From a virus (lineage: Duplodnaviria > Caudoviricetes): a stretch of DNA of 54,989 nucleotides. Below the pieces are notes generated by a model, which worked only from the letters and a program-made list of their open reading frames with translations, was not told the DNA's origin and did no database searches. The translations under genes were made by a program, and so were the position numbers. How positions within the stretch are numbered: the first letter of the stretch is position 1; each line of letters opens with the position of its first letter. Positions 5,529 through 52,776 of this stretch are shown one piece after another. The stretch is taken from IMG/VR virus record IMGVR_UViG_3300030107_002762, positions 1-54,989 of that record; one strand, given 5' to 3'.

Positions 5529-5529
5529 A

Positions 5530-7146
5530 CTAAATATCTTCTACGTTTAGTTGAAAATCTAAAATATTTTCTGGTTCATCTTTTTTTGTTGTCGAACCAG
5601 TAGATTCTCTATATCTTGGTCGATTTATAAATTCTTGATAAACGTCTTCTTTTCCAAAACGATCTGCAAAGTTTTTACGTTTATACGTTGATGTATCTTG
5701 ACCGTCAGTAAATTCAAAATAATATTCAAAAAGATTTAACATTCTATCAGAGTATTTATCTCCTGTTTTAAACCTTGGTAAACGACCGACTGCTAAAGTT
5801 GAAGCTAATCCTGCATCATTTTGTTCTATTGTTGTTTCTATAAACTCTACTAAATTACTATATAAAACTTCAGCGTTTTGCGTAGCTCCGAAACCTATTT
5901 GTTGTAAAAAGAACGCTAAATCTTTATCTGATAATGTTCTACCAGTTTGTCCTGCAGTAGCTGCGGCACTATAAGCTAATTGTAATAATAAACTTCTAGT
6001 TCTAACTTCAGCAAACGCTAAATCTCCTAACGCTTCTTTTATAGTGTTAAATTTACCCGTTGCTGCCATTGCTCCTGATTTATCAAACTGTTCTATCGCT
6101 GCATCTATTTCCGCTTGATTACCGCTTCGTAATGCTTCAATTAATGCTAAAGCATTTTGTCCTGTGCCTTGTCGACCTATACTTCCTCCAATACCTTGAC
6201 TAACATCTACGGGCGTAGCGAATAACTTTTCGCCTCCTGTTGTTACATAAATTTGTTCAAAATTTGATAAGATACTATCAGCAGCTTTTCCTAAATTAGC
6301 TACTAAAGTAGTTGGATTCATTGCAGGGTCGTCTATACCCTCCTGTAATAAATCTAATGCTGCATTACCAGCGACTAAAAATCTCAAAGTATTAGTATCT
6401 TGTTCTTGTATTTTTAAATCTAATTCATCAAATTTTGATAAACCTACTTTATCTAATTTATTAAAATCAAGAGTTTCTTCTAAAACTTTTACGTCTACAA
6501 AATTTGTATCTGGTAATTCCAAAACATTTATATATTCAGTTCTATCGTCATTTAATACAGAATAACCTTTTTTAGGATCGAATTTACCTTGGCGAATATC
6601 CATGATACCGTATTTTGCTTTTTCTTGATCTACTAAAGTTACTCGTTGATCAGGTTCATCTTTTATTTGTTGTGCGATAAAATTTTGTCTAGCAGTTTCA
6701 GTAAGGTTAGCACGGTCGCTTCTAGCTTTATCAAAAGAACTAGCGGTATTAATAAATGCTGCTAGTTCTTGGTCATTATCAGTAAGTAACGCAGGTAAAT
6801 ATTGCGTAGCTAAATCTCCAATACGTTGACCTGTGGTTTGTGTTCTTCTAGGACCGTAAATTTGTTCAGCTAAGTATTCTGCTTTCGCTAAATCACTAGC
6901 GTCTTCATCAGGAACAGGTAAGGGGTCTGCTTTACTAGAAAATAATTTATCGGCTAAAAAACTTAAACCTACTGGTGCAAGATATGCTAACGGATTTATA
7001 TCGTCTCTCGGCGGGGTAGTAAACGTTCTACCACTAACGTTAGGAAATCTAGGAGCCGTAGGAGTTAAAGTAACAGGTGTAATACCACCTGCTGTATCAC
7101 CACCGAACGTTGGAAAAGGACGTAAACCTGCTATACCGTTAGTCAT
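5530..7146 (-). CDS. Internal virion / ejection protein
   Basis: Position in the ejection gene cluster; helical; GRTLSDKD motif. Confidence 0.55.
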   Translation of the reverse strand: MTNGIAGLRPFPTFGGDTAGGITPVTLTPTAPRFPNVSGRTFTTPPRDDINPLAYLAPVGLSFLADKLFSSKADPLPVPDEDASDLAKAEYLAEQIYGPRRTQTTGQRIGDLATQYLPALLTDNDQELAAFINTASSFDKARSDRANLTETARQNFIAQQIKDEPDQRVTLVDQEKAKYGIMDIRQGKFDPKKGYSVLNDDRTEYINVLELPDTNFVDVKVLEETLDFNKLDKVGLSKFDELDLKIQEQDTNTLRFLVAGNAALDLLQEGIDDPAMNPTTLVANLGKAADSILSNFEQIYVTTGGEKLFATPVDVSQGIGGSIGRQGTGQNALALIEALRSGNQAEIDAAIEQFDKSGAMAATGKFNTIKEALGDLAFAEVRTRSLLLQLAYSAAATAGQTGRTLSDKDLAFFLQQIGFGATQNAEVLYSNLVEFIETTIEQNDAGLASTLAVGRLPRFKTGDKYSDRMLNLFEYYFEFTDGQDTSTYKRKNFADRFGKEDVYQEFINRPRYRESTGSTTKKDEPENILDFQLNVEDI

Positions 7147-7148
7147 AA

Positions 7149-8492
7149 TTAAAAGTACCCTGCGTTACCTAAATTAGGAAGTGTTGAATAATTTACTGCG
7201 GGCATCATCATTGGTGGATTTAAACTAGGCAATCCTGCAGCAGGAGCACCTATACTTCCAGGAAGAGTATTTTGTCCAGGAAGACCACCTATATTAGGAG
7301 CAAAAGCTCCTACCGTTGGTTGTGAACCTCCAGCAAAACCATAACCACCTGCTAACGGTCCTAATGAAGCGGTTAATGCTCCAACATTTTGTAATGTTTG
7401 CATTGGTAAATTGTATTGACCTACAAAATTTTGATATGCTAAATCTAATAAAGACTGTTCTCTGCCTCTACCTAGTCCACCAAGAGCCATTTGTTGACTT
7501 ATATCTTGTGCTTGTAAAGCAGGTAATGTAGTAGCTAATCCTTGATATTGTTGTCCTAATGCTCCTAACCCTTGACCTAAACGTTGTCCTAAATTAGCTA
7601 AACCAGCACCGCCTTGTAAGCCCATACCAAACTCAGCTTGTCCAAGTCTACCTAATTGTTGACCCTGTCTTAACGCGGCTTGAGCTTCGGCACTACCTAA
7701 CTGTCCTTCTCTAGCAGCTAATTGTCCTTGTAAACCTGCTAACCCTAATTGTCTACGTTGCTGAGCTTCAAACGCTTGTTGAGCAGCATTTCTAGCTCCT
7801 TCAAAACCTTGACTACGAATTGCTCCTACTTGTTGAGCGGCACCTCTTGCCGCATCTTCAGCTAATTCTTCTTGAGTTAATCTAGAACGAGCACCACCAA
7901 AAGCTCCTGCTCCTATCGCTTGGTCGCGTAAACCAATATCGGCTTTACCAAAACGTTCAGTAATATCATCTAATGTTTGCTGTACTACTTGTTCTTCAAA
8001 AGGGTTATAGAAATTACTAACTTGTTGGTTAGGGTTGAATATTCCTGTTGAGCCATAACCACTAAGTTCTGCTCTACCTAAACCACCACGAGCAGCAGAA
8101 AAATCAGGACCTGCTCCTCTAGTAAATCCTGCTGCTTCTCCTGTTAGCCCACGTCCTGCTGCTAATCCTGCAGAAATATTTCGTCCACCTATATCAGCAG
8201 CACTACGCATAGTGCCTGTCGCTTCGGATAATAAATTTCTTTGTTGATTTAAAAAAGGTTGATAACTGCCAATACCTTGATCGGCTAATTGCATACCTCT
8301 AATTTCTCTAGGGTCAAAATCAGCTACCCGTTGACCTGTATAGGTAAATGGGCTAGTGTCATCGCCACCTAATTGTCCAAACTGTTGTCGTAAAAACCCT
8401 TGAGCAAGAGGAAAAATATCTTTTTGTAAAAAATCGCCTATATAACCCGCGGGGGCTTGGGTCGAATATTCTTGTTCTTCTCTACTAGCCAT
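7149..8492 (-). CDS. Gln/Gly/Ala-rich DNA pilot / ejection protein
   Basis: YTGQRVADF, GAGAFGGAR and QQ/LG-rich helices typical of podovirus ejection proteins. Confidence 0.65.
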   Translation of the reverse strand: MASREEQEYSTQAPAGYIGDFLQKDIFPLAQGFLRQQFGQLGGDDTSPFTYTGQRVADFDPREIRGMQLADQGIGSYQPFLNQQRNLLSEATGTMRSAADIGGRNISAGLAAGRGLTGEAAGFTRGAGPDFSAARGGLGRAELSGYGSTGIFNPNQQVSNFYNPFEEQVVQQTLDDITERFGKADIGLRDQAIGAGAFGGARSRLTQEELAEDAARGAAQQVGAIRSQGFEGARNAAQQAFEAQQRRQLGLAGLQGQLAAREGQLGSAEAQAALRQGQQLGRLGQAEFGMGLQGGAGLANLGQRLGQGLGALGQQYQGLATTLPALQAQDISQQMALGGLGRGREQSLLDLAYQNFVGQYNLPMQTLQNVGALTASLGPLAGGYGFAGGSQPTVGAFAPNIGGLPGQNTLPGSIGAPAAGLPSLNPPMMMPAVNYSTLPNLGNAGYF

Positions 8493-9570
8493 ATTTTCTA
8501 TTACCTTGTTTATTAAATTTTTCTAACATAGCGATACCTTTCTGATGATTGCCTTTACCTAGATGTTTTACCGCAGCGTTAGATAACATAAATTCACCGT
8601 CACTAGCCATAACAGGTATTAGATCATCTTTAGGACCTCCTGGACCTTCAATATCGCCACCATCTAACATAGGTTTAAACATAGGTCTATCTAACGTTCC
8701 GCCGTTTTTAAAACCTCTACTACCTGCAAAAGCCGTACCAGTTATCGGTCGTATATTTCTTAAATAATCTCGTTTTGTACCTAAACCACCTGCAGGTAAT
8801 GTATTTGTTGATTGTATAGTAACTCTACGAGTAGGTTCGTCCTCTCCTAAAATTTCACTAGCTAAACGTTGTCCTAATGCGGTGCCTATTTGATTTATAG
8901 AACCCGCAAATAATTCTTGTGTTTCAGGTGAAAAACGACTCATAAAACTATCGAAACGTTCTCTTAATGTAGGATTTAAAGTAGCGTCTAAAGAAGCTAA
9001 ACCAGTTTCCTTCATTAAATCACCATCTATTTGTATAGGCATAGAACTAGTACTATCGTATAAATCTACATCTTTAGTTTGTTTAAAATCTATATCAGGA
9101 ATTAAATCCATAATACCTGTTTTTTCAGGTCCTTCTGCTAATAAAATTTTTTTAAATTCTTCTAATTCTTTAGCGTCTAAATCTAACAAACCACCCTCTT
9201 TCTCAAATTTAGCTATAAGTTCTTCAATACTTAATTCACCGCCATTAGCAGCATTTAGGGCTCCACCAATAGCCATTCCTGCAATACCAAGTTTACTTAA
9301 ATCGCTAAGATTTATTCCTGCGTCTTGTAACATGGTTAAAATTTCTTCTTCCTCTCTTGCAGGTTTAGCAGGATCATCATAAGTAAATTCTCCAAATTCT
9401 TTTACTTGACTGCCTTCCACGGGAGTAATTTGTGCGTCAGGTCCAGGAGATAAACTAGGTGCAGTACCTGCTCCAATAGAAGTCGGTTGTTCAGGTTCAC
9501 CTAAAATTTTATTAGTAGCAACATTTGTTGCTACTCCTACAGCTATTTGAGCTAGTATATTTCCTAACAT
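8485..9570 (-). CDS. Internal virion protein
   Basis: C-terminal GGDIEGPGGPKDDLIPVMASDGEFM motif; several xGG motifs. Confidence 0.55.
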   Translation of the reverse strand: MLGNILAQIAVGVATNVATNKILGEPEQPTSIGAGTAPSLSPGPDAQITPVEGSQVKEFGEFTYDDPAKPAREEEEILTMLQDAGINLSDLSKLGIAGMAIGGALNAANGGELSIEELIAKFEKEGGLLDLDAKELEEFKKILLAEGPEKTGIMDLIPDIDFKQTKDVDLYDSTSSMPIQIDGDLMKETGLASLDATLNPTLRERFDSFMSRFSPETQELFAGSINQIGTALGQRLASEILGEDEPTRRVTIQSTNTLPAGGLGTKRDYLRNIRPITGTAFAGSRGFKNGGTLDRPMFKPMLDGGDIEGPGGPKDDLIPVMASDGEFMLSNAAVKHLGKGNHQKGIAMLEKFNKQGNRKYG

Positions 9571-9654
9571 TATTTCCTCTGCGTTTATTAACGTATTAGC
9601 GAGTTAAAGCCCATCTCGTAAGCTGCAGTTCAGTACTGACAATTCGATTATACT

Positions 9655-11412
9655 TCATACTGTATATATTTTTAAAGGTTTTTCTTTGCCTTTTACTTTT
9701 ATAGGTTTTAATGGTTTTAAATAATAACCACATTTACTTTCCGTATTTTCACCTATTAAAATATCTACCCCCGCGTCTTTTGTACCTGATTCTAATCTAG
9801 CTGCAGTGTTTACCGCGTCACCAATAGCGGTATAATCAAATCGTGAGGAAGACCCCATATTACCGATTACTGCTTCTCCTGTGTTTACTCCTATGCCTAT
9901 GGCTACTGCAGGAAGTCCTTCCGCTTGGAGTTCTATATTAAGGTCAGCCATATTTTGCCAAATATCTTTAGCACAATCTACCGCTATTTGTTCATGATGT
10001 AATACGTCTAAAGGAGCATTAAATATAGCCATCATAGCGTCGCCTATGTATTTATCAACCATACCACCGTGTTTTTGCACTGCTGCTTGTTGAGCGGTAA
10101 GAGCTTTATTCATAATATAAGTTACTTTTTCTGGCGTTACAGCTTCTGATAAAGCGGTAAACCCTCGTACATCGGTAAATAAAAAAGTAGCGTATCTTTT
10201 TTCACCACCTAATTTTAATAACTCAGGATTCTTTTGTAGCTGTTTTACTTGTCTAGGGTCTAAGTAATGTTCGAATTGTTTTTTAATTTCTAAACGTAAT
10301 TTATATTGTTCACGAAAACGTAAATAAAAAGCAATCGTTCCTGTTATAAATTCACTAATTAAAGTCCACGTTGTATCTATTAATAATCCTTGTTGTATAG
10401 CATAATATCCTCCGATAGCGGTGCTAGACATAATAGCACTAAAACAAAGAACCCCTGCAGTAACGCCTAAGTTGCTTAACACAACCCAAACTAAAAGCAG
10501 GGATATAACTAATATTAAAACTTCAACGGCTAAACTGTAGTCGGGGATAAATGGACTATTTTCTACCAATATTGATTCTGCTAGTGCTGCTTGTACCTTG
10601 TGTGGTTCAAGTAATCCAACTGGGGTAGCTAACTGTGGCATTACGCCCTCAGCAGTAACTCCTACAAAAACAAATTTATTTTGTACGGCTAACTCTTGCA
10701 TATTAGTTTCTGGAGTATCTACCCAACTAACCCACTTACGTCCTAATCCGTCCGTTTTAACGGCAGGTAAACCTTTTACCCGTACTTCTTCTATACCGTT
10801 CGTATTAGTCTTAATAACGTACGTATTAGCCCCTGTTAGGGCTTTTAGTACTTCGGTACCGAAAGCGGGTAACCACCCGTTAGGCGTCTTATATAGAAGC
10901 GGTATACGTCTAACTAAGTTATCTACGTCTACGGGAGCCGTAGCTATACCTTCATTTGCTTCTAATTCAGGTATATTTCTTACCGTGCCTTGAGCTAAAT
11001 AACCACCGTTGCCTTCACCCATAATAACGGTGCCTACCGTATCTGGGTATTTACCATTAGCGTTTTCGAATAAAGCTAATACCGAAGGAGCATAACTAAG
11101 AGCTATTTTAAAATTACCGTCGCCACCAAAACGGTCTTTATGTGGAAAGCCAATAACCCAACCAACGCCTAAAGCTCCTCGGTTTAACAATTCTATTTGT
11201 AATTCTGCTAAACGTTGTCTAGGAAAAGGATAACCACCTTCATTATTAACATCTTCTTCAGTGATATTTAAGATAACAAAATTACCAGAAGGTTCAGGAG
11301 TCTTTACAAAAGTATCAAAAGTTTTTAATTTTAATATTTCTTGCGGAGCTAAACTAAAAATTAACGGTAAACTTAACACCGTTATTATTACAATAATTTT
11401 TAAATACTTCAC
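9655..11412 (-). CDS. CHASE2-domain membrane class III adenylate cyclase
   Basis: N-terminal TM, CHASE2 (VILNITEE, YPFPR, DNLVRRIPL), three TMs, catalytic FTDVRGFT, DKYIGD, YTAIGDAVNTAARLE. Confidence 0.92.
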   Translation of the reverse strand: MKYLKIIVIITVLSLPLIFSLAPQEILKLKTFDTFVKTPEPSGNFVILNITEEDVNNEGGYPFPRQRLAELQIELLNRGALGVGWVIGFPHKDRFGGDGNFKIALSYAPSVLALFENANGKYPDTVGTVIMGEGNGGYLAQGTVRNIPELEANEGIATAPVDVDNLVRRIPLLYKTPNGWLPAFGTEVLKALTGANTYVIKTNTNGIEEVRVKGLPAVKTDGLGRKWVSWVDTPETNMQELAVQNKFVFVGVTAEGVMPQLATPVGLLEPHKVQAALAESILVENSPFIPDYSLAVEVLILVISLLLVWVVLSNLGVTAGVLCFSAIMSSTAIGGYYAIQQGLLIDTTWTLISEFITGTIAFYLRFREQYKLRLEIKKQFEHYLDPRQVKQLQKNPELLKLGGEKRYATFLFTDVRGFTALSEAVTPEKVTYIMNKALTAQQAAVQKHGGMVDKYIGDAMMAIFNAPLDVLHHEQIAVDCAKDIWQNMADLNIELQAEGLPAVAIGIGVNTGEAVIGNMGSSSRFDYTAIGDAVNTAARLESGTKDAGVDILIGENTESKCGYYLKPLKPIKVKGKEKPLKIYTV

Positions 11413-12563
11413 CCTGAACCTTGTCTAATATTTATTGTAGAATCACTACCACCGTTTACTTTAATTTCATTCATCACGCCGTCTTGTTCTAAAATTACAG
11501 TGTAGCTATTGTCGCTATCTATATTTAATACTGCACCTTGTCCTACAGTTCTATTTAAACTTATTTGTGCTCCAGAAACTACTGTGGTTATCTGAGTTTT
11601 AGTGTCTTGACCAATGTTAGTGCCTCGAATAGTAGAAGAAATAGCTGATTGATCAAGCTGATCTTCGTCTGTTAAACTGTCTAGTTCATTTAAAATATTT
11701 AATAAATCTTCTAAAAAATTTACATTTAACGCATCGTAATCTAATTCAGTAAAATCTAACTGTTCTTCTTCTTTTAAGTTTTCTTCTGCTAAATAATCAA
11801 AATCTAATTCATTAAAATCTAAAATAGGGTCTTTTATTTCTTGTGTTTCTTCTTCTTCTGTTTTTATTACTTTTTTAGGCGGTGTAACAATTAACATATT
11901 ATCAATAAAATCTAATGACAAATCTAATAATACAGGAGGACTAGGCGTTGCTTCTAAGGTAGTTGTCGTTGTGGCTTGATATGCTTGGTTTAAAATTACC
12001 TCACCCATAGCCGTACTAACTACTATTTCTCCAGAAGGGTTACCAAATTCATCAGGTAATAAAATAAATAAACTTTCACCCGTGTCGGGTTCTACTGTAA
12101 TAGTAAAATCTGTTCCTCTAATCGCTACCGTAGCTGAGTCCGTACGAATAGTCATATTTTCTTTTGGAATACTACTAAATTTAGCAGTTACAAAACGAGC
12201 CGTGCCTTTAGCAAAAGATAACGCTAACTTACTTTTTGTTGGGTTAGGGTCGTAAATGTATTCGTCAATAATTAAAGTAGAATGTTCTGTTAGTTTAACT
12301 TTACTATCGTCAGCAAAACGTAAACCTAATCTACCTTGTTCAGTTTTAGCCTCATCGTTAGATTGTAAATTAAAATCAATTACTGCTTTATAATCTTTAT
12401 CACGGCTTATTTGTCCGTAACCTGAGACTTCTTCTACAGAGCCGATGTTAAGGGCAACTGGTTGCTGTGCCTTGATCGTTTTGGATAATACAGAAAGTAC
12501 CATTAGAACCATTAGAAATGACACGTAACCAGTCGTTATCGAGTGTTGACGCCTGTGTAACAT
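11409..12563 (-). CDS. FecR-domain periplasmic protein with acidic linker and curlin-like C-terminus
   Basis: Signal peptide; FADDSKVKL and VAIRGTDF FecR motifs; true start probably near 12513. Confidence 0.8.
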   Translation of the reverse strand: MLHRRQHSITTGYVSFLMVLMVLSVLSKTIKAQQPVALNIGSVEEVSGYGQISRDKDYKAVIDFNLQSNDEAKTEQGRLGLRFADDSKVKLTEHSTLIIDEYIYDPNPTKSKLALSFAKGTARFVTAKFSSIPKENMTIRTDSATVAIRGTDFTITVEPDTGESLFILLPDEFGNPSGEIVVSTAMGEVILNQAYQATTTTTLEATPSPPVLLDLSLDFIDNMLIVTPPKKVIKTEEEETQEIKDPILDFNELDFDYLAEENLKEEEQLDFTELDYDALNVNFLEDLLNILNELDSLTDEDQLDQSAISSTIRGTNIGQDTKTQITTVVSGAQISLNRTVGQGAVLNIDSDNSYTVILEQDGVMNEIKVNGGSDSTINIRQGSG

Positions 12564-13158
12564 TTATAGTTCTAGAACCTCCTGTGTGGTTTAAATGAAA
12601 AAAGCCTCCTTGAAAACCATCACCGTTATAGTTAATGGTGTTATCAGAACCATCAACATTCATATAGTTAGTAGCCAAGTCTACATCGATATCGGAATCA
12701 ATAGTATTGTTTGAACCGTTGATGATCCAATCTAAATCTAACGTAGTAGCTAATGCTGCGGTGCCTTGGTCTAAAGACATATCGTTAGCTGTTCCTGTTA
12801 CTGAAATATTTACGTTAGAGCCGTCAGTGGAATAAGTGTTAGTAGGGTCTGTTTGAATATCGAAAATATTACTAGAACCAGAAAATTCAAAAAACCCAAT
12901 ATAATTATCAGCGTTAATATCTCCTTTAAATAAATTACTAGAACCTATCTGATTGATATCTAAGGTCATGTTAGTTCCGTCTAAATCTAGTGGCGTCATG
13001 CTCCCTGAAGTAGATAAAACTCCTCCAATTAAGTTACCTGAACCTAGCTGTTCTATATCTGCGTTTAGGGTTGCTCCTGATTGATCAATAGATATTTCGT
13101 TATCCGCAGACCATAAAAAATTAGATAAAACTATTAACAAAAATAATTGTTTTTTCAT
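12448..13158 (-). CDS. Secreted curlin-like (CsgA/CsgB-like) beta-solenoid protein
   Basis: MKK signal peptide; repeats NEISIDQSG, DIEQLGSGN, DINQIGSSN; directly after csgG. Confidence 0.65.
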   Translation of the reverse strand: MKKQLFLLIVLSNFLWSADNEISIDQSGATLNADIEQLGSGNLIGGVLSTSGSMTPLDLDGTNMTLDINQIGSSNLFKGDINADNYIGFFEFSGSSNIFDIQTDPTNTYSTDGSNVNISVTGTANDMSLDQGTAALATTLDLDWIINGSNNTIDSDIDVDLATNYMNVDGSDNTINYNGDGFQGGFFHLNHTGGSRTINVTQASTLDNDWLRVISNGSNGTFCIIQNDQGTATSCP

Positions 13159-14000
13159 TGTTTTAAGCTCCAATATTCGTATTGTATTCCTTCCATGATG
13201 GTTTTGTAAACTGCTGTTTCTATGGCTGCTTGTAGGGCTATAGTTACTCCTTCGTTCTCTACGTTACCGTTTTCTATCTCTATTAACCTAGTATTATCTT
13301 TTACGAAACGGAAAACATCTTGATTAATACCTACGCTTAAAATAGTTTTAGTAACAGTAACTTCTGTTAAAATACGCCCCGTAAGCACAGAAACCGTGCG
13401 TAAACTTATTGTAACTGTATCTTGTCGGTATTCTTTACTTACCCCAATACCTAATATTCTACCTCCCGAACCACCTGAACGAGTATTAGTTTCATAACCA
13501 ACTACCGCACCTTCCATTAAAATACCTGCAAATAATAAAGGTTTTAATTTTTGTTCTTCATCAAAGTCTTTTCGTGTACTACGAATTAATTGTCGTTCTT
13601 TAGTTAAGTTATCTAAACCAACGCGTTCTACTACTTCGAAAAAATTACCTTTGCTAGTGTCTTTTAATGCTTTTATTAATAATGCGTAAGGGGCTTGAGT
13701 AACTGCGGTGCTAAAAGAAGCATAAGTACTATTACTTCTACGTTGTCCTGTTTGATCAGTAAACGCGGTAGGATATACCGCTACCACGGGTTTTATATTT
13801 GGAATTCCTAAATTACTTAAGTTTTCATTAATGACTTCAGAAACCTCTGCATATCTTGAAGGTTCTAAATTTTCTATCGCTTGTTCTGTTTTTAATAAAG
13901 CACAACTAGAAAGTAAAACTATCAAGAGGAAAAGTAATGATCGTTTCGTTGCCGTCAGCATCAGTGATAGTAAGTGTAATCGTAGTATCATCAGCAACAT
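13155..14000 (-). CDS. csgG: Curli secretion channel CsgG-like outer-membrane lipoprotein
   Basis: Lipobox LSSC; DQTGQ, FSTAVTQ, VVERVGLDNLTKERQLIR; true start is downstream of the annotated one. Confidence 0.9.
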   Translation of the reverse strand: MLLMILRLHLLSLMLTATKRSLLFLLIVLLSSCALLKTEQAIENLEPSRYAEVSEVINENLSNLGIPNIKPVVAVYPTAFTDQTGQRRSNSTYASFSTAVTQAPYALLIKALKDTSKGNFFEVVERVGLDNLTKERQLIRSTRKDFDEEQKLKPLLFAGILMEGAVVGYETNTRSGGSGGRILGIGVSKEYRQDTVTISLRTVSVLTGRILTEVTVTKTILSVGINQDVFRFVKDNTRLIEIENGNVENEGVTIALQAAIETAVYKTIMEGIQYEYWSLKQ

Positions 14001-14403
14001 AGTCTATCCTGTTTCCCTCTAATTCAATAGTACCTGCGTTAGAAGCAGTCTCTCCGAATAAATTATCTACTAATTGTTGTGATAGCTTAGCATAAACTCT
14101 AGATTCTAAATTTCTAATAAAACGGGCTAACGTGCTGTTATTTTTATCTCTTTCTGCTTCATCTGCGGCAGCTTTTAAAGCATCTGAAATACTTTGTTTT
14201 CTTGTTTTTTCTTGATTTTCTATTGTTAAATAATGTGCTGAAGTTCCTACTCCTGAAAAACTAGGGCTTTTAAAAGTAAACTTCATTTCGTCTGCTTGGG
14301 TAACAGATGAATAAACTATAGCAAAAACTATAAAAACAATACCCGTGTACGCGAAAATATTTTCAATCGCTATTTCGTTCTTTGTTTTCTTTCGTTTCCT
14401 CAT
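13906..14403 (-). CDS. csgF: Curli assembly protein CsgF-like
   Basis: Signal/TM segment then FKSPSFSG; FIRNLESRVYAKLSQQLVDNLFG; adjacent to csgG. Confidence 0.8.
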   Translation of the reverse strand: MRKRKKTKNEIAIENIFAYTGIVFIVFAIVYSSVTQADEMKFTFKSPSFSGVGTSAHYLTIENQEKTRKQSISDALKAAADEAERDKNNSTLARFIRNLESRVYAKLSQQLVDNLFGETASNAGTIELEGNRIDYVADDTTITLTITDADGNETIITFPLDSFTF

Positions 14404-14638
14404 CTTTTAATTCTCTTAACTCAATCACAGTATCTAGTTTTTGTTGTAATCTTATTAAATCATTGTCCAACATACGTACTCTATCGATTAAAGCTATTAA
14501 CGTAACGTTAGCGTCCGCAAGTTTAGCTTTTATATTTTTTGTAATAAAGTTCCAAATATAATAAAGAATATACAGCAGCCCGACGGTAGCTACAATGGGA
14601 AAACCATATTCACTAATAATTACTGCAATATTTTCCAT
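14363..14638 (-). CDS. Small single-TM protein with coiled coil
   Basis: EYGFPI, TM, coiled coil; paralog of the next gene. Confidence 0.6.
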   Translation of the reverse strand: MENIAVIISEYGFPIVATVGLLYILYYIWNFITKNIKAKLADANVTLIALIDRVRMLDNDLIRLQQKLDTVIELRELKDEETKENKERNSD

Positions 14639-14919
14639 TAATCTCTACGAGCGTCGTTTTTACCATCGGCTCTTGCAATACGTTCTAGGTCAGGTCGAAT
14701 ACCTAACACCGAACACATAGTAGCATCAACACGAATCATATCGTGATTCATAGTTTTTACTCTATTATCTAAAGCCGTAACAATATTATGAATACCGTCT
14801 ACCTGACCTACGACGCTTTCTAAAATATATTTTACGGTAAGAAAAATAAAAAACCCGCCTAATAAAGACATGGCTATAGGAAAGCCAACTTCAGCTATTA
14901 ATGTAAAATAGGTTTGCAT
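14638..14919 (-). CDS. Small single-TM protein with coiled coil
   Basis: EVGFPI, TM, coiled coil. Confidence 0.6.
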   Translation of the reverse strand: MQTYFTLIAEVGFPIAMSLLGGFFIFLTVKYILESVVGQVDGIHNIVTALDNRVKTMNHDMIRVDATMCSVLGIRPDLERIARADGKNDARRD

Positions 14920-15086
14920 CGTTCTATATCTTCAACAGCTATCGTTTCATCTAACATACCTACTACAATTACTCCATATTCTTCTGCTTGTTCTTCAGCT
15001 TCTTCAAAAGATTCAGCAACGATATTAGGACCTTCGTGAATAGTTCCTCTAAACCTAAATTCTGTAAGGAATATTTTTAAAGACAT
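14898..15086 (-). CDS. Small acidic hypothetical protein
   Basis: Overlapping start/stop coupling with both neighbours. Confidence 0.55.
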   Translation of the reverse strand: MSLKIFLTEFRFRGTIHEGPNIVAESFEEAEEQAEEYGVIVVGMLDETIAVEDIERCKPILH

Positions 15087-15433
15087 TAATCACCGCCTTT
15101 AAAGTTTTTACTTTGTCCTGAAGTACCTGCGTAAATACCAAAAACTGCTGCCATGGCTCCTACTACGATTGATACTAATGCTGATTGTTCTAGGTTAGGT
15201 TCTGGTAATTCCATAAACCAAATAACAACTTTGTAAAGGAGTACGATATAAACACTTACAAAAATTCTAGGAAAAATACGCCATGCGTCTATAGTTTTAG
15301 CTAAATGTACCCAGTTTATATAAGGGTTTTCTCCTTTATTATTAGGCGTAACATCTATATCTAATTCTAATTTCTTTTTTATTGGGGGTTCTCTTTCAAC
15401 TATAGCGTTATCAGTTATTATCTTTTCTTCCAT
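15086..15433 (-). CDS. Two-TM membrane protein, holin candidate
   Basis: AWRIFPRIF followed by two hydrophobic helices. Confidence 0.5.
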   Translation of the reverse strand: MEEKIITDNAIVEREPPIKKKLELDIDVTPNNKGENPYINWVHLAKTIDAWRIFPRIFVSVYIVLLYKVVIWFMELPEPNLEQSALVSIVVGAMAAVFGIYAGTSGQSKNFKGGD

Positions 15434-15861
15434 GATGTATCCTCTACTGGTGTAAATAAACCTAACTCGATAAGTTTAGCTCTATTAAGTAAATGGGTTT
15501 CTTCTACCTCTTGTTTATTTTGTCCATAATATGCTACTGCATAATAACCATCAACCATAGCTTTATTTATATCTACGCCATCACAAACTACGGTGCCTAA
15601 TACTCTACCGTATTTACCGCGGGAGTCTTTTAATTCTGTTCTAATAATTACTTGTTCTGCAGTATTTATAGCGTTTTGTAAATACGCTGCAGCTAATTTA
15701 CCTCTAACTTTTTCGTCTTTATTTCTGGTTCTAGACTCTGGAGTATCAATAGCATATAATCTAACTCTAGTTTTAAAAGAAACATCAAAACCTAAATCTA
15801 AAATAACGTCTATAGTATCACCATCAACAACACGTTCTACTGTACAGCTATATTCATACAT
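15418..15861 (-). CDS. Thermonuclease (SNase) family nuclease
   Basis: RVVDGDTID, RVRLYAIDTPE, GKYGRVL; start at MYEY. Confidence 0.9.
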   Translation of the reverse strand: MYEYSCTVERVVDGDTIDVILDLGFDVSFKTRVRLYAIDTPESRTRNKDEKVRGKLAAAYLQNAINTAEQVIIRTELKDSRGKYGRVLGTVVCDGVDINKAMVDGYYAVAYYGQNKQEVEETHLLNRAKLIELGLFTPVEDTSWKKR

Positions 15862-16042
15862 TCCTGCCTCGCTTTTTAGTAGTAGTTCTTGCTTGTCTAA
15901 AGTTCTTTTTACTTGGTGCACCTTTACTTCCTGGTTTACGCATACGTTCACCACTACCCGCTTTTATACGTCTACGTTTTGCATGAATATTTGCCCACAA
16001 TCCTGGACGTTTACTTTTACCTTTTTTACTATGTTTTGGCAT
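15854..16042 (-). CDS. Highly basic small protein
   Basis: K/R-rich, GLWANIHAKRRR. Confidence 0.65.
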   Translation of the reverse strand: MPKHSKKGKSKRPGLWANIHAKRRRIKAGSGERMRKPGSKGAPSKKNFRQARTTTKKRGRNV

Positions 16043-16327
16043 TTAACACTTCCATCTTCTTCTTGCTTGTCTCAACCTAGAATTAGGATTTTTTGCGGCT
16101 TTAGGAAACTTTTTCATTTGTCCTGCTGATCTAGCACAAAACGATTTACGTCTCTTAGCTGCTTTACTACCTTTTTTGACTTTACCAGTAACAGCGGTTT
16201 TTAATTTACTTCCAGGATTCATACGTCTATACGCTTTTACCCCTGCAGCAGTCATACCCGCACCTTTTTTAGTAGGTCTAAAATTCTTTTTATTACGTTT
16301 AGGCATTTTCGCCTGTTTTCTAGGCAC
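16043..16327 (-). CDS. Highly basic protein (DUF6321-like)
   Basis: RRKSFCARS and RLRQARRRWKC; GTG start after AAGGAG. Confidence 0.65.
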   Translation of the reverse strand: MPRKQAKMPKRNKKNFRPTKKGAGMTAAGVKAYRRMNPGSKLKTAVTGKVKKGSKAAKRRKSFCARSAGQMKKFPKAAKNPNSRLRQARRRWKC

Positions 16328-16625
16328 GTCTTTTTCTCCTTCTTGTGGTTTTCTTTTTAGCAAACGTTCTTACATTAGTTGGTTTGCCTCCTGGATTACC
16401 TGCTGCTCTTTTTCTACGTACTGCACTTTTACGTTGTGCTGCAGTCATGCTTCTAGCTTTAGCTCTGGGAACACATTTAGGGTATTTTCTTTTAGATTTA
16501 CCTTTAGCAGATTTACGCCCACATTTTTGAAACTTACCTTTTTTCTTAGGAGCACCTATATCAACCCAATCACCTTTAGGTCCTTTACCAAACCACTCTG
16601 TTAATCCACCTTTAGGTTTTGCCAC
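16320..16625 (-). CDS. Highly basic small protein
   Basis: GLTEWF, DWVDI, YPKCVP. Confidence 0.65.
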   Translation of the reverse strand: MAKPKGGLTEWFGKGPKGDWVDIGAPKKKGKFQKCGRKSAKGKSKRKYPKCVPRAKARSMTAAQRKSAVRRKRAAGNPGGKPTNVRTFAKKKTTRRRKRRA

Positions 16626-16914
16626 TTTTTTTCCTCGCTTTCCTAATAGCTTCTTTTCCGCGTTTAAAAATACTAACTACTTGTGTTTTACCCATGACTT
16701 TAGCTCTTTGTTCACCAACGGTAAGTATTTGTATTTTTCTAGCAAAAGGTTTTTTAACCTTTTTAACTTTAGCAACTGTTGCTCTAGCATCAGCAGGTGT
16801 TGCAAACTTAATTTTAACAGTGTCTTTAGGATTTTCATCTGTATATAACCTTCTACCAGACCCTTTTGGTTTTTTACCTGTGCCTTTTTTAGGGTCGCGT
16901 TTTTTCTTAGGCAT
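16612..16914 (-). CDS. Highly basic small protein
   Basis: GRRLYTDENPKDT; K-rich. Confidence 0.65.
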   Translation of the reverse strand: MPKKKRDPKKGTGKKPKGSGRRLYTDENPKDTVKIKFATPADARATVAKVKKVKKPFARKIQILTVGEQRAKVMGKTQVVSIFKRGKEAIRKARKKSGKT

Positions 16915-17093
16915 TATTTATAGCCACCACCACGTTTCTTATACGTACGTACTAACCAACCATTAGCATAAGCACTTGGATAAACTTTAAATTTACGTTT
17001 AGCTTCCGCTTTTACTCTTGCATATAATGCAGGATTAGTTGGCGTAGCTCCTTTTTTCTTTTTAGTTGTTTTCTTTTTCTTTTTTGCGGGCAT
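16914..17093 (-). CDS. Highly basic 59-aa protein (DUF5872-like), absent from the ORF track
   Basis: Manual translation MPAKKKKK...FKVYPSAYANGWLVRTYKKRGGGYK. Confidence 0.75.
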   Translation of the reverse strand: MPAKKKKKTTKKKKGATPTNPALYARVKAEAKRKFKVYPSAYANGWLVRTYKKRGGGYK

Positions 17094-17096
17094 AGT

Positions 17097-17267
17097 TTAT
17101 TTCCTCTTTTTAATTGGTTTTCTTTTAGTTACTTTTTTTGCTGAACCATATCTAGTTTTTTGATCTTTATTGATTTTTTCTAGTTTTTTAGCTTGTTCTG
17201 CGTGTAACTTACTAGCTTTTTTCAACGCTTTTACAATCTCATTTAAATCTTTAGTGTAATGTGGCAT
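17097..17267 (-). CDS. Basic 56-aa protein, absent from the ORF track
   Basis: Manual translation MPHYTKDLNEIVKALKKASKLHAEQAKKLEK...; fills the operon gap exactly. Confidence 0.7.
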   Translation of the reverse strand: MPHYTKDLNEIVKALKKASKLHAEQAKKLEKINKDQKTRYGSAKKVTKRKPIKKRK

Positions 17268-17268
17268 T

Positions 17269-17943
17269 TTAATCTTCGTATAAATTATTAAATGTAATTG
17301 CAGGGTCTAAATAACTTTCATGACCTTCAGCAGAGTGTACCCACTGAGAGGGTTTAAAGTCAGGTGCTCCATCACCTGTTACCCATAAAGCAGGACTTGT
17401 TGCTCTAACTCTGTTGTTAGGCAAAGCAACAAAGTTGCCTTTCCACTTACAATCTTCAGTTATATATAACACATGAGATTGTTTATGTTGAGCAGGGTCA
17501 TCAGCAATATCGCTATCAGTATAGTCTACGGTAAACATATAACGACCAGTATAAAACTCGCCGTCTATTTTACAAAGCCAAGGACTAGAACTGACTCTAT
17601 CCATAATCACTATAGAATGGTTTCTTGATTCACAATCCCAAGGTTGAGCTAAATGATCTTCCATTGGTTCTGGGAAATCCTGACTAGGAATATCGGCAAC
17701 TAATGCTTGTATTGGCATTCTAGCCCACATAGCACCGCCGTGGATATTACCTTCGTCATTATCGTCACAATTAGCTTCTTCTCCAGTAAAAACTACTTGA
17801 AAACTTAATGATCTATCAGGAATAGTAGTAACTGCTATTGCTAGTGCATGAATATACTCATCTTGGTATTCTTCATGGTTTTTAGTAAACTCTCGTCTAA
17901 CCCAACATTTAAAATGCGGGATGTTACTTATTAAATAAGGCAT
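17269..17943 (-). CDS. Conserved phage hypothetical protein
   Basis: HGGAMWARMPI, QPWDC, HKQSH, LPNNRVR; globular composition. Confidence 0.7.
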   Translation of the reverse strand: MPYLISNIPHFKCWVRREFTKNHEEYQDEYIHALAIAVTTIPDRSLSFQVVFTGEEANCDDNDEGNIHGGAMWARMPIQALVADIPSQDFPEPMEDHLAQPWDCESRNHSIVIMDRVSSSPWLCKIDGEFYTGRYMFTVDYTDSDIADDPAQHKQSHVLYITEDCKWKGNFVALPNNRVRATSPALWVTGDGAPDFKPSQWVHSAEGHESYLDPAITFNNLYED

Positions 17944-17946
17944 AGC

Positions 17947-18114
17947 TTATTTCTTTTTCTTTTTAAGAATTTTACGTTTTTTAGATTTTTTTCTTAAAGA
18001 ACCGCCCTTAGACATTTTTCTTAAAGAACCACCTTTAGACATTTTCCTTAAAGAACCGCCCTTAGACATTTTCCTTAAAGAACCACCTTTAGATTTACGT
18101 TTGTGCATTGGCAT
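17947..18114 (-). CDS. Protamine-like basic repeat protein
   Basis: Four SKGGSLRK units from a 27-nt tandem repeat; RBS AGGAGG before the ATG at 18114. Confidence 0.7.
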   Translation of the reverse strand: MPMHKRKSKGGSLRKMSKGGSLRKMSKGGSLRKMSKGGSLRKKSKKRKILKKKKK

Positions 18115-18116
18115 AA

Positions 18117-18560
18117 TTAACCTCCTTTTAATACACGTTTTTGTAATCTTACTGCTCTTTGTTTGACTTGTGTAGCCCAACGACTATCCATCATTTCCGT
18201 AGCAGCAAGTTCCCAGTTTCTTTCAGATAACGCTGTTAAAAATTTTTTAAACTTTTTTAATCGCGTAATACCTAAATTGAAACACATATTAGCTAACACT
18301 AATTGTATATCATCTGGTAACTCTCGCCACCAAGATAAACTCCTATCTAACTCTTTAAAAACTATTTCTATATCGTTTTTAAAACACTCGTTAATTCTTT
18401 TAGTAGATATGGGTGTACCAACAGGTTCTCCCCATTCTTTGTCTTTATCTGTTATTAAGTGTCCTATTCCAAAAGTATGGTAACCAAGATGATCTAAATA
18501 AATTTCGTTTATACAACCCTCATCGACTTTTAATTCTTCTCTAAGTTTTTCTATGTTCAT
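18117..18560 (-). CDS. Endolysin, T4-lysozyme-like (GH24)
   Basis: DEG, YLDHLG, TFGIGHL, NMCFNLG, DSRWATQV. Confidence 0.92.
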   Translation of the reverse strand: MNIEKLREELKVDEGCINEIYLDHLGYHTFGIGHLITDKDKEWGEPVGTPISTKRINECFKNDIEIVFKELDRSLSWWRELPDDIQLVLANMCFNLGITRLKKFKKFLTALSERNWELAATEMMDSRWATQVKQRAVRLQKRVLKGG

Positions 18561-18562
18561 AA

Positions 18563-18889
18563 TTACTGAATAGGTATAGTGGTAGCTCCTGCTAAAGAAA
18601 CCGTAACTTTGCCAAGTGCTGTTGTACCTTGTGTACCTTTTTCTGTACCTGTATAAATATCAACCCATTGTTCTCCTGTCCAAAGTTGTATTTGGTTTGT
18701 TGATAAATTCCAAATTAAATCTCCTGTTCTAAAACTTGTAGAATTTCTTTGTTCTTCTGTAAAGTTATTAGTCGAACCAACATCTACTTTATTTAAGCTA
18801 AGTTCTAAGATTCTTACTAATCTATTAAATATCTCAGGAGACAGTTCATTTTGAGCAAAAGGTAATTTAGTTTCTAATATTTTAGCCAT
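18563..18889 (-). CDS. Tail-associated hypothetical protein
   Basis: GDLIWNLSTNQIQLWTGEQW fibre-type motif. Confidence 0.55.
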   Translation of the reverse strand: MAKILETKLPFAQNELSPEIFNRLVRILELSLNKVDVGSTNNFTEEQRNSTSFRTGDLIWNLSTNQIQLWTGEQWVDIYTGTEKGTQGTTALGKVTVSLAGATTIPIQ

Positions 18890-20766
18890 TATCTTTTACC
18901 GTCAGGTTGTGTTTCTATACGTGTTGCCCCTACTTTAAACCCTAGTCCTGTTACAGTAGTGTCTGTATCATCAGATTGAATTCTTAATACTGCTTGTCTA
19001 CCTCTAACTCTAGTATCTATTTTAGTTGTTACTGAGGTACAAGAACCAGTAGCTCCTACGCTTAAATCTTCTCCAGGAAAATTTCTTTTCTTTAAAACTA
19101 AATTTACTTTTTGTCCAGAAGCACCTGTGCTTCCTGTGCCATTAAAAGTTACATCAGGTATTATTCTACTAACAAACTGAAACTCATCTCCTTCACCTAA
19201 ATCGAAATCACTAGACTCTATAAAAACATTAGTCATAGCATTTCCATCATCATCATTACCTAATTCATGATCAAATAAATAATTAGAAGAAGTTGCTTTA
19301 GGGTTAGCAAAAATACCTTCATCTAACCAAGCTGTTCTAGAAAGTTCTCCTATCATCCAAACATTTTCTTCATAATTATAAGTAACGTATTTGTCTATAA
19401 CATTAGAACCTGCCGAGCAATAAAACCAACCTACTTCACTAAATTCTTTATTTAAAAAACCGAAGGTTTGATAACTTTGTGTTTCGTTTATATTACCAAA
19501 AACATGTTCTTCTACAGAACACGGTAGTTTTACTACAGAACCTGCATAATTATAAAAACCTTTTTTATCCATCCAAAACACTCCTTTAGACGTGTTTATC
19601 ATGGCGTTAGGACCTATAGACCCCACTCCTTCGTTTATTAAATTAACACCAAAAGTAAATGGTTGTCCTATAAAAGACATAGAAAATAATGCAGTGTCTG
19701 TCCAAATTAATATTTCTTGTCTAGTTCTAATAGCTCCTACTATTTGAGAACCAGAAGAAAGTCTTAAAGAACCTGCAGTATTTGTTGTTTTTGGCTCCCA
19801 CTCAGCAACATTCTCTTGATCACTAAACGCTATAAATAGAGGGTCTATTGCTCCTGTTCTAGCCGTGCCTGAAGCATTTAACGGGTCTGCTCCAAAACAA
19901 ATTACGTGTCTATCTACATCTGAAACCATTGTTTGTAATGCAAGTGTGGGGGCTAAGTTAGCTCCTGCTAAATCAGTTAAAGCTACCGCTCTATTGTTAG
20001 TGCCATTAGTTTTATCCCAATAATAAACACTACCTCCTCTAACATTTATTAATAAATCTTCACCAAAATTATCATGTGTCCATAAACGTAATTGATTATT
20101 ACCCCCCAACGAAGAAGAACTTCCCCAACTGCCTGATCCCCAAGCGTCTGCTCCCCAACCAGTAGCGGGTACATAAACATCTAAACCTACGTTTATTTGG
20201 TAAACTCCGTCAACTCCTGAACCTCCGTTTCCTGTATCACTACTATTAGCGGTAACAGTAACTCCAGAAGTATTTTTAGCGGTTATAGTATACGTATTAG
20301 CGGTAGGTACTGTTTCTACTTCATATTCTTGATTTAGAACATTAGAGTTTATATTACCGCCTAAACTTACTGCTCCTGATAAAGTTACAAAATCTCCTTG
20401 AACAGCACCGTGTGAGGAATCAGTAACTGTTAAAGTGCTAGAGCCATTAGTCGCTGCAAAAGTTATTGAATCAGTACTGGTTTTTCTAATAGGGGTGATG
20501 TCGTTAAAATCGGTGCCGTCTAATATGTAATATTTTACCGTTGTGCCTAACCCAAGATATTTAGTTCCATCTATCGCAACCCAAGCATGTAACCCTCTAC
20601 CTGTGCCTAAGTAAGTAGAAGAAGTAGCTTTAGTCCAACCACCTATTTTTTCGGGTAATCCTTTTTTAAAACGAACTAAATTACTATCAAACCAACCACC
20701 TTCGTTAGCATAAGCAGTAGCTTCTTTATTAATTCCTGGTCTAAATATTAATTTCTGCAAAGGCAT
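18889..20766 (-). CDS. Tail nozzle / DNA stabilization protein (P22 gp10-like)
   Basis: Beta-propeller-like composition; PGINKE..WFD N-terminus, QPDGKR C-terminus; tail position. Confidence 0.7.
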   Translation of the reverse strand: MPLQKLIFRPGINKEATAYANEGGWFDSNLVRFKKGLPEKIGGWTKATSSTYLGTGRGLHAWVAIDGTKYLGLGTTVKYYILDGTDFNDITPIRKTSTDSITFAATNGSSTLTVTDSSHGAVQGDFVTLSGAVSLGGNINSNVLNQEYEVETVPTANTYTITAKNTSGVTVTANSSDTGNGGSGVDGVYQINVGLDVYVPATGWGADAWGSGSWGSSSSLGGNNQLRLWTHDNFGEDLLINVRGGSVYYWDKTNGTNNRAVALTDLAGANLAPTLALQTMVSDVDRHVICFGADPLNASGTARTGAIDPLFIAFSDQENVAEWEPKTTNTAGSLRLSSGSQIVGAIRTRQEILIWTDTALFSMSFIGQPFTFGVNLINEGVGSIGPNAMINTSKGVFWMDKKGFYNYAGSVVKLPCSVEEHVFGNINETQSYQTFGFLNKEFSEVGWFYCSAGSNVIDKYVTYNYEENVWMIGELSRTAWLDEGIFANPKATSSNYLFDHELGNDDDGNAMTNVFIESSDFDLGEGDEFQFVSRIIPDVTFNGTGSTGASGQKVNLVLKKRNFPGEDLSVGATGSCTSVTTKIDTRVRGRQAVLRIQSDDTDTTVTGLGFKVGATRIETQPDGKR

Positions 20767-51862: not shown

Positions 51863-52776
51863 AATTCGTATTTGCTTTTACCTGCTACTACATCTTCTAC
51901 TATAGGCAAGTCGTTTTGTTTATAGATAGAACGTGTCCTACCCTCATTTTTAAGAATACGTGAGTATTTATCAAACTCACATAAACCCCCTTCTATCTCC
52001 CTTAATTCATAGTTAACAGAGTTTCTTTTAGTAACCCAAGAATTTCTTTCGAATGCTATTTTTAACAACTCTTGCATTTCACTGTTCCAATCATGACTAC
52101 GTAAACAATAATCTAATGGTCTACCTGTCAAACGATTAAGACCTCGCATAGCTCCTGGACCTGCATTAGCCCAAGTCATAATATCATTAGCTTCATCTAA
52201 TAAATAAGTATGTCTTAAATCAGTAACAACCTCGTACGCCATAAATGGACCCATGTAAGGATAATCTCGTAAAGTTTCCCAACAAAACTCTAAAGAAGAA
52301 TTGTTTAATGCTTTTTTATTTTCTAATTTAGTTACTAAATAATCTCTGTCGTTCCACATATGACTTATACATTCAGCTACCCCTGTAACTTTATCCATAC
52401 GATTAGGGGTTTTAATAATATAAGAACCAGTAATCCATTTAGGTTGTTTTTTAATAAGTTCAATAGCTTTCTTCCTATTCCAATTAAACAATAAATCATT
52501 TTCTATTAATGTCCTTCCTGTTTCTATTAAATTAAACCACCTAAAAATTATTACTGCCATAAAAACTCTAGGGTCGTCTCGTAACGGTTCTCTAATATGT
52601 TTTTTAAGCCACCGAGTAGTCCTATCTTCTTCTCGATAAACTTGACAGAATTTAAACTCTTGTAAAATAGGATCATTAGTCCAAGGGGGCGGTAAATCAT
52701 TTTCTTTCTTTTTACGAATACTTTCCCGTTCTTCTTGCCAGTAAAAATATCTATCAAGTTCTTCTGCAATAAACAT
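51859..52776 (-). CDS. aGPT-Pplase1-type amino acid/amine:DNA transferase (HhH glycosylase fold)
   Basis: ERESIR, PPPWTNDPIL, FCQVYREEDR, FRWFN, GPFMAYEVVTDL, GPGA, EGGLCEFDKY. Confidence 0.8.
   Translation of the reverse strand: MFIAEELDRYFYWQEERESIRKKKENDLPPPWTNDPILQEFKFCQVYREEDRTTRWLKKHIREPLRDDPRVFMAVIIFRWFNLIETGRTLIENDLLFNWNRKKAIELIKKQPKWITGSYIIKTPNRMDKVTGVAECISHMWNDRDYLVTKLENKKALNNSSLEFCWETLRDYPYMGPFMAYEVVTDLRHTYLLDEANDIMTWANAGPGAMRGLNRLTGRPLDYCLRSHDWNSEMQELLKIAFERNSWVTKRNSVNYELREIEGGLCEFDKYSRILKNEGRTRSIYKQNDLPIVEDVVAGKSKYEL

Follow-up and report, generated by a model that had tools for sequence, protein, structure and literature searches.

Analysis of a virus contig in IMG/VR (record IMGVR_UViG_3300030107_002762, 54,989 bases, estimated 89% complete; this whole stretch is called the window below) uncovered seven co-directional genes on the minus strand at 9655-14919, whose listed open reading frames (ORFs) abut or overlap. 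They encode homologues of the curli secretion proteins CsgF and CsgG, a curlin-like repeat protein, a FecR-domain protein, a CHASE2 adenylate cyclase and two small membrane proteins. The reading that we favour, with belief and doubt in about equal measure, is a type VIII secretion system (T8SS) core that lacks CsgE and would export the curlin-like protein to the cell surface, with FecR as an integral part and a CHASE2 cyclase as an optional arm matched to FecR; FecR is the hinge between the two. A bacterial operon that has FecR and no cyclase, the sister position of viral FecR in a domain tree, and an intact FecR in viral loci that have no cyclase together argue that FecR belongs to the core. 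The genes are listed below (TM, transmembrane).

14638..14919, minus strand: TM1, small membrane protein, 93 aa (phrog_18771, 5.7e-29)
14363..14638, minus strand: TM2, small membrane protein, 91 aa, a paralogue of TM1 (phrog_18771, 5.3e-28)
13906..14403, minus strand: CsgF homologue (PF10614, 1.6e-17)
13155..14000, minus strand: CsgG outer-membrane lipoprotein channel (PF03783, 8.7e-49; lipobox LLSSC)
12448..13173, minus strand: secreted curlin-like repeat protein, 241 aa (PF07012, 3.6e-5)
11409..12563, minus strand: periplasmic FecR-domain protein, 384 aa (PF04773, 3.7e-10; phrog_37870, 1.1e-63)
9655..11412, minus strand: CHASE2 class III adenylate cyclase, 585 aa (PF05226, 4.5e-24; PF00211, 5.2e-19)

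A sequence-only reading of this DNA had proposed a five-gene operon of CsgF, CsgG, curlin-like, FecR and CHASE2 cyclase genes. All five are present as placed, with Pfam matches on the minus strand that bear out their identities, but the span holds seven genes, not five. The ratio of nonsynonymous to synonymous substitution rates (dN/dS) was 0.01-0.13 for each of the seven when the window was compared with two relatives, so that all of them are real genes under purifying selection. Promoter and terminator scans of 7000-19000 gave no excess over shuffled sequences (32 vs 36 and 7 vs 7.1, respectively).

The core is conserved across viral loci while the cyclase comes and goes

A relative of this CsgG is encoded on 279 IMG/VR contigs, and synteny was counted on the best 80 of them, many of which are near-copies. 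Gene order is kept in 80/80 loci as far as the contigs reach. CsgF lies before CsgG in all 80; the curlin-like gene comes next in 66 of the 67 loci with at least 800 nt of room, and FecR next in 59 of the 60 with at least 2,000 nt. Where there is room upstream of CsgF, small TM genes stand there in 70/70 loci, one in 39 of them and two in 31. The cyclase follows FecR in 44 of the 54 loci with at least 1,900 nt of room and is absent from the other 10, and the FecR stop overlaps the cyclase start in 35 of the 46 loci that carry both genes.

The cyclase has been lost, gained or swapped repeatedly. Its presence and absence need seven changes (at least five of them forced) on a CsgG tree of 83 rows, 57 of which have a known cyclase state, and three changes on the FecR tree. 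FecR in the cyclase-less loci keeps 90-92 of 98 invariant residues, these positions being defined on 27 cyclase-bearing FecRs with the divergent L093 row left out. In two pairs of loci, CsgF-CsgG and the downstream genes share 88-100% DNA identity, the FecR core shares 57-67%, and the cyclase is cleanly present in one member and absent from the other. Because the flanks are near-identical and the FecR core is divergent, the two states differ by a swapped cassette of FecR core with or without cyclase rather than by simple deletion, and such a swap fits co-adaptation of FecR and cyclase.

A set of FecR substitutions (S87T, V89I, L97V, Y102F, A147G) was considered as a signature of cyclase absence and is not diagnostic: the distant, cyclase-bearing FecRs of phage HTVC008M and locus L088 share T87, F102 and G147, and only the conservative V89I and L97V remain associated with absence of the cyclase.

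Core and cyclase arm point to separate bacterial parents

A pattern search with the viral CsgG alignment, run over bacterial genomes at one genome per species, recovered 12 loci. Three of these (L090-L092) are truly bacterial, with a GC content of 0.62-0.65 and flanking genes for acyl-CoA dehydrogenase and pyruvate phosphate dikinase; they come from metagenome-assembled genomes (MAGs) titled Candidatus Salivita marina, Gammaproteobacteria bacterium and Pseudomonadales bacterium. Their operon encodes a curlin-like protein, CsgF, CsgG, two further curlin-like proteins and a 360-aa FecR-domain protein. The order CsgF, CsgG, curlin-like, FecR is common to this operon and the phage module; unlike the module, the operon has no small TM genes and no cyclase. 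Its FecR aligns with phage FecR over residues 40-289, past the Pfam domain, and its CsgF and CsgG score 4e-49 and 1e-80 against the viral profiles, compared with <=2e-20 and <=2e-73 for 26 further CsgF-CsgG loci from a sample of 401 Pseudomonadota genomes. A FecR or cyclase gene lies within 8 kb at none of these further loci. The CsgF-CsgG-curlin-curlin-FecR operon is rare, being found in 3/81 genomes of the family and 0/300 others of the order. A word-index search with CsgG returned close metagenomic relatives only and no bacterial ones. Wittmers et al. 2022 (PMC9599517) place FecR and the adenylate cyclase outside bacterial T8SS operons, a statement that fails for FecR in this gammaproteobacterial clade, where FecR is part of the L090-L092 operon.

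The cyclase leads elsewhere. Close CHASE2 cyclases occur in 103/301 Alphaproteobacteria (best match 6e-80), and an ORF with a FecR domain lies within 5 kb of 12 of the 25 closest, within 201 nt in eight cases; four of the 12 show the phage-like, same-strand order of FecR to cyclase. Neither CsgF nor CsgG was found at any of these 25 loci. In a FecR-domain tree of 37 rows, which includes 13 of the 28 cyclase-bearing viral rows and is a quick tree with long branches and modest support, all viral FecRs form one clade, whose sister is the T8SS-linked bacterial FecR; the FecRs linked to cyclases in Alphaproteobacteria stand apart. By these comparisons, core and cyclase arm have different bacterial parents that the phage module brings together, and the cyclase looks like an addition to the core.

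In the gammaproteobacterial MAGs, the single CHASE2 cyclase is located elsewhere than the operon, beside CHAT-TPR and MtxA-like genes. At L101 (2101-9069), and also at L100 and L102, it lies behind a 1,291-aa CHAT-TPR protein and a 319-aa MtxA-like protein (DUF7354, MtxA Ig-like, MtxA_C), a layout that echoes the TPR, FecR and CHASE2 clusters of Campylobacterota. Low-GC module contigs (0.32-0.43; L083-L089, L093 and L094) sit in MAGs of unrelated taxa, labelled Maricaulis, Flavobacteriaceae, Polynucleobacter, Luteolibacter and Pelagibacter, L093 being a 103-kb contig in a Luteolibacter MAG. These are probably phage contigs that were mis-binned or co-assembled, and such contigs can mislead inference of host and origin.

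Proteins of the secretion core

The CsgG profile matches E. coli CsgG structures over their full length (2.4e-65) with the lipobox kept, and CsgG matches NF011731 at 2.2e-46, below the equivalog cut-off. CsgF has a signal peptide and a conserved N-terminal F-x-F-x-x-P-x-F-x-G segment, in which F44, P47, F49 and G51 are invariant in 20/20 sequences. A PDB search with the single CsgF sequence gave no match, while the CsgF profile aligns to the N-terminus of E. coli CsgF (6l7a) with an E-value of 0.008. This conserved segment is presumably the part that enters the CsgG barrel in the solved CsgG-CsgF complexes.

The curlin-like protein contains a signal peptide, about seven Q/N-x-G-x-x-N repeats and two conserved C-terminal Cys residues. 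Only one repeat matches PF07012 (24.1 bits against a cut-off of 20.7), but the family has invariant G-x-x-N columns at a spacing of about 22-33 residues, and a repeat hidden Markov model (HMM) finds four significant and three weak units, as against 0.005 per shuffled sequence. PDB searches at E<=1 returned no CsgA and only chance-level matches, and the protein falls into no PHROG family. The second curlin gene of phage HTVC008M encodes a 441-aa "hypothetical protein" between FecR and cyclase (L001 4603-5928, minus strand) that combines PA14 (2.7e-6) and Curlin_rpt (5.2e-8) domains and is a possible adhesin-type curlin.

Compared with the curli system of E. coli, the phage module shares a full-length CsgG with its lipobox, the N-terminal segment of CsgF and a secreted substrate with Q/N-G-N repeats. 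It differs in that CsgE was not found and in having one curlin-like gene, whose product ends in two Cys residues, and it adds FecR, the cyclase and the small TM proteins.

In TM1, a single TM helix at the N-terminus is followed by a coiled-coil-like middle part and then by a charged C-terminus; TM2 has an N-terminal TM by hydropathy. With dN/dS values of 0.01 (TM1) and 0.01-0.03 (TM2), they are the most constrained genes of the block. Searches of Pfam and NCBIfam placed them in no family (best YvrJ, E 0.1), and the top 30/30 matches of TM1 in an Atlas search are viral hypothetical proteins. PMC9599517 calls these small genes histidine kinases, a label that is unsupported for proteins of 91-93 aa with no HisKA/DHp or HATPase_c domain.

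FecR and the CHASE2 cyclase

FecR comprises an N-terminal signal or TM segment, the FecR domain (residues 73-160), an acidic F-x-E-L-D linker and, at the C-terminus, a beta-rich domain of unknown fold; its ORF encodes 384 aa, and gene callers may place the start at residue 21. A PDB sequence search with FecR gave nothing at E<=1, and residues 215-384 gave no usable Atlas match. A curlin-like repeat at the C-terminus was considered and rejected (hhalign probability 5.8%, P 0.0066; repeat HMM E 0.84). An anti-sigma regulator of the FecI-FecR-FecA type was likewise rejected, as only the periplasmic FecR domain is present; this domain comes after the N-terminal signal or TM segment, so that an anti-sigma domain in the cytoplasm would not fit. 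The subset of window ORFs that was scanned showed no sigma or TonB-receptor family.

Hydropathy places TM segments of the cyclase at residues 1-27 and 287-333, around a PF05226 domain at residues 11-306, with the cyclase domain at 408-583. This layout of TM segment, periplasmic CHASE2 domain, TM cluster and cytoplasmic cyclase is, as predicted from sequence, that of a CHASE2 membrane sensor. The protein aligns to solved class III cyclases in the PDB (down to 1.4e-33). Among 28 viral orthologues, the catalytic residues D414, D458, K454 and R539 are each conserved in 28/28 and N535 in 27/28, and position 528 is T in 17, S in 10 and D in one. K454 aligns with the K of an engineered adenylate cyclase (6fht) and with the E of its guanylate-cyclase parent (2w01), and we take the Lys/Thr pattern to be of the class "IIIb" type. 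The intact ATP-type catalytic pattern described by the sequence-only reading holds. The cyclase domain also matches Pycsar PycC models (3.5e-27), as any class III cyclase would; a Pycsar anti-phage system was rejected, with no adjacent effector that binds cyclic nucleotides (cNMP) and no PF00027 match in the record.

Genes for FecR-domain proteins stand directly upstream of or beside CHASE2 membrane sensors in bacteria as in the phage module: in the CHASE2 cyclase clusters of Campylobacterota (PMC9239204), beside a CHASE2 kinase in Burkholderia, where the protein is a LysM-FecR (PMC5192318), and in S. meliloti, where SMc02177 with its FecR domain lies beside cyaD1 (PMC5498481). The viral FecR domain groups instead with the T8SS-linked FecR in the quick, long-branched tree described above.

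Lysis context

The sequence-only reading had placed the operon among late lysis genes, and the neighbourhood agrees, with a lysozyme and a holin-like gene in the window and a lysozyme nearby in nearly all related loci.

15086..15433, minus strand: possible holin, 115 aa, with two C-terminal TMs at 53-77 and 81-105 (phrog_10198, 3.6e-22; tentative)
15418..15954, minus strand: staphylococcal-nuclease-like endonuclease (PF00565, 4.8e-13)
18117..18560, minus strand: phage lysozyme (endolysin) (PF00959, 4.8e-9; PHROG endolysin, 5e-18)

In the window the lysozyme lies 3.2 kb upstream of the module. Among the 42 related loci in which the module end is complete and followed by at least 2,000 nt, a same-strand lysozyme lies within 3.2 kb in 41, being 0.4-1.4 kb downstream in 32 and upstream only in nine; one locus has none. 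Between FecR and the lysozyme stand Rz-like spanins (L023, L024) or a holin-like protein with two TMs (L012, L043, L058), and the 115-aa protein of the window bears a weak likeness (E 0.006) to the two-TM holin-like protein that precedes lysozyme in relatives. The staphylococcal-nuclease-like gene flanks the module in many related loci. The modules of the myophages HTVC008M and Melnitz neighbour replication and baseplate genes, and the association with lysis is therefore a property of podophage backbones.

Relation to the published pelagiphage module

The module is already published and is not new as a discovery. Wittmers et al. 2022 (PMC9599517) describe this T8SS/curli "partner-AMG" module in nine HTVC023P-type podophage genomes and in pelagimyophages. 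Its order there is "HK" (one or two), CsgF, CsgG, CsgA/B, FecR, in some cases another CsgA/B, and then the adenylate cyclase; CsgE is absent, and the module is reported from all 65 GOV2.0 stations with evidence of expression. Pelagiphage curli genes are also treated in the earlier Zaragoza-Solas 2020 (PMC7029224) and in Buchholz 2022 (PMC9004378). HTVC008M and Melnitz have the same module order, and the GenBank record of Melnitz names CsgF, CsgG, curlin-repeat, FecR-domain, curlin-repeat and cyclase genes. The window shares with the pelagiphage module its gene order and content, the lack of CsgE, the TerL lineage and a wide occurrence in marine metagenomes; nothing essential differs. In the window, the small upstream genes number two and a second curlin gene is absent. 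The sequence-only reading was right that csgF and csgG occur in marine myophages and understated what is known, since the whole module with FecR and cyclase has been published for podophages too (PMC9599517). The searched text of that paper names the CHASE2 domain 0 times. Full-text literature searches returned no functional study of the phage module, and PMC9599517 was the sole relevant match.

The record also encodes the small and large terminase subunits (TerS and TerL), portal, capsid, tail fibre, PolA, thymidylate synthase and 5-hydroxymethyldeoxyuridine (5-hmdU) kinase. Its TerL is 58% identical to that of phage 023Pt_psg01, 53% to that of HTVC027P and 51.5% to that of HTVC023P, and by this likeness the phage is an HTVC023P-type podophage. 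More than 5,500 CsgG relatives reach E<=1e-10, and at least eight studies from 2014-2024 have marine metagenome runs that contain near-identical DNA. In RNA libraries of two studies, contigs that are 90-99% alike span portions of the cyclase, FecR/curlin and TM1 regions, which attests to presence in RNA libraries and is not proof of transcription.

Candidate mechanism and competing explanations

From these features we infer export and polymerisation of the curlin-like protein, contact between FecR and CHASE2, the timing of expression and any effect of cyclic AMP (cAMP). The Sec-exported CsgG channel and the plug segment of CsgF would form an outer-membrane pore, through which the curlin-like protein would leave, to be displayed or polymerised on the infected cell. 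Periplasmic FecR would be an integral accessory of a CsgE-less T8SS subtype, and one or two small inner-membrane coiled-coil proteins would accompany the core. Where present, the CHASE2 cyclase, translationally coupled to FecR, would turn a condition of the periplasm or envelope, which it probably senses by way of FecR, into cAMP. The podophage block stands in the lysis region and would probably be expressed late.

Several points weigh against this reading. The 80 viral loci are not independent, and co-inheritance of FecR and cyclase might reflect nothing more than physical linkage. The resemblance to curlin is slight, with a single Pfam repeat above the cut-off and no CsgA match in the PDB. 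A search of the entire record for CsgE (PF10627) at E<=0.1, which did detect the E. coli control, gave no match, in agreement with the sequence-only reading, and no separate nucleator was recognised, no search aimed at nucleators having been made. Fibre formation is a prediction from the genes, Buchholz et al. (PMC9004378) saw no clumping in cultures infected with Melnitz, and a late, lysis-linked position is an odd time for building surface fibres. SAR11 hosts are presumed, from TerL likeness only. The cNMP-binding domain PF00027, the only such domain searched, was not found in the phage record. Of 61 genomes sampled from the presumed host family (that of a MAG titled Candidatus Pelagibacter; completeness of each at least 80%), only 2 encode it, so that cAMP would have no known receiver. 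The class III cyclase domain PF00211 occurs in 3 of the 61, and the phage-like contig itself accounts for at least one of them.

The sequence-only reading took the operon as a sensor rather than a fibre exporter, with the curlin-like protein in the CsgG pore relaying through FecR to the CHASE2 cyclase, and with cAMP adjusting lysis timing, possibly in response to superinfection or cell contact. We consider this unlikely. Translational coupling of FecR to the cyclase (35/46 loci), the spread of FecR-CHASE2 neighbourhoods in bacteria (PMC9239204, PMC5192318 and PMC5498481), the conserved catalytic residues, the change of FecR core allele where the cyclase is absent, and a position beside holin-like, spanin and lysozyme genes all speak for it, and they make the FecR-cyclase link itself plausible; that part of the proposal stands along with its lysis context. 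A sensor and nothing else is harder to reconcile with a cyclase that is missing from 10/54 loci while the other genes stay conserved, that has been lost, gained or swapped at least five to seven times on the CsgG tree, and that is absent from the operon of the bacterial core relative, where FecR is present; the core persists without it in phages and bacteria. The closer relative of viral FecR, moreover, is the T8SS-linked bacterial FecR and not the FecRs linked to cyclases. The cAMP relay meets a phage in which PF00027 was not found and a presumed host family that hardly encodes it, myophage modules are not adjacent to lysis genes, and S. meliloti SMc02177 is reported to be dispensable for signal perception (PMC5498481).

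The lysis context likewise invites the proposal of Buchholz et al. 2022 (PMC9004378) that an ungated, CsgE-less CsgG-CsgF forms a regulated, pinholin- or secretin-like outer-membrane pore that triggers or times lysis, with the remaining proteins as regulators. CsgE was indeed not found, the podophage module is consistently beside lysozyme (41/42 loci), spanin or holin-like genes, and strong constraint acts on the small TM proteins. We nevertheless regard the proposal as quite improbable, since relatives also carry Rz-like spanins, holin-like proteins and lysozyme, so that no lysis step is obviously missing; it leaves the conserved curlin-like substrate and FecR unexplained, the myophage versions lie away from lysis genes, and an outer-membrane pore of about 1 nm (a figure of PMC9004378) is not known to lyse cells. 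An ungated pore could instead import iron complexes or vitamins for phage replication, with FecR as an iron-related regulator, an idea raised in both PMC7029224 and PMC9599517 and favoured by the missing CsgE gate and by the association of the name FecR. This seems to us very improbable indeed: the FecR protein offers no space for an anti-sigma domain in the cytoplasm, the ORFs that were scanned showed no FecI- or FecA-like partner, the presence of CsgF and of the curlin-like protein goes unexplained, and a late, lysis-linked position leaves little time for import to count.

A further possibility, to which we give little credence, is that cAMP is a second messenger private to the phage, as the presumed SAR11 hosts, in the genomes sampled, almost never encode class III cyclases or cNMP-binding domains. 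The FecR-CHASE2 arm on a T8SS pore with its curlin-like substrate would then read late events in the envelope and set lysis timing through a phage-encoded receptor of unrecognised type. The events sensed would be outer-membrane or periplasmic ones, such as secretion state, superinfection or cell contact, and the arm would be a functional analogue of T4 lysis inhibition.

Other features of the window

Directly downstream of the cyclase, at 2253-9570 on the minus strand, lie four large ORFs (361, 447, 538 and 1091 aa) that have no Pfam, PHROG or NCBIfam match; the first two are kept beside the module in the closest relatives of the window. Immediately 3′ of the cyclase (9428-9568), relatives (L003-L009, run X5) carry about 640-700 extra bases compared with 139 in the window, and this edge of the module is an indel hotspot. 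On the other side, at 15854-17093 (minus strand), about five small Lys/Arg-rich ORFs of 59-106 aa, one of which matches DUF6321 (7e-13), are flanked by a 224-aa ferredoxin-like PHROG protein and by the nuclease; their products may bind DNA or be internal virion proteins.

The sole long plus-strand gene (27-1157) is a fragment of an SNF2-type helicase that runs off the 5′ end; all the rest is encoded on the minus strand. The ends of the record probably differ from those of the genome. At 50792-52776 on the minus strand, thymidylate-synthase-like and 5-hmdU DNA kinase genes adjoin PolA, a thymidine hypermodification pair that is also described for HTVC023P-type phages in PMC9599517.

Meaning for pelagiphage biology

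The analysis adds to the published account of this module the separate parents of core and cyclase arm suggested by the bacterial relatives, FecR as the hinge between them, a dispensable cyclase that swaps together with the FecR core, and the missing cAMP receiver expected in the host. The module is abundant in ocean viromes, and through it the most abundant marine bacteria, when infected, gain an envelope machine that is otherwise absent from them. What the module does would matter for aggregation, superinfection, lysis timing and carbon flow.

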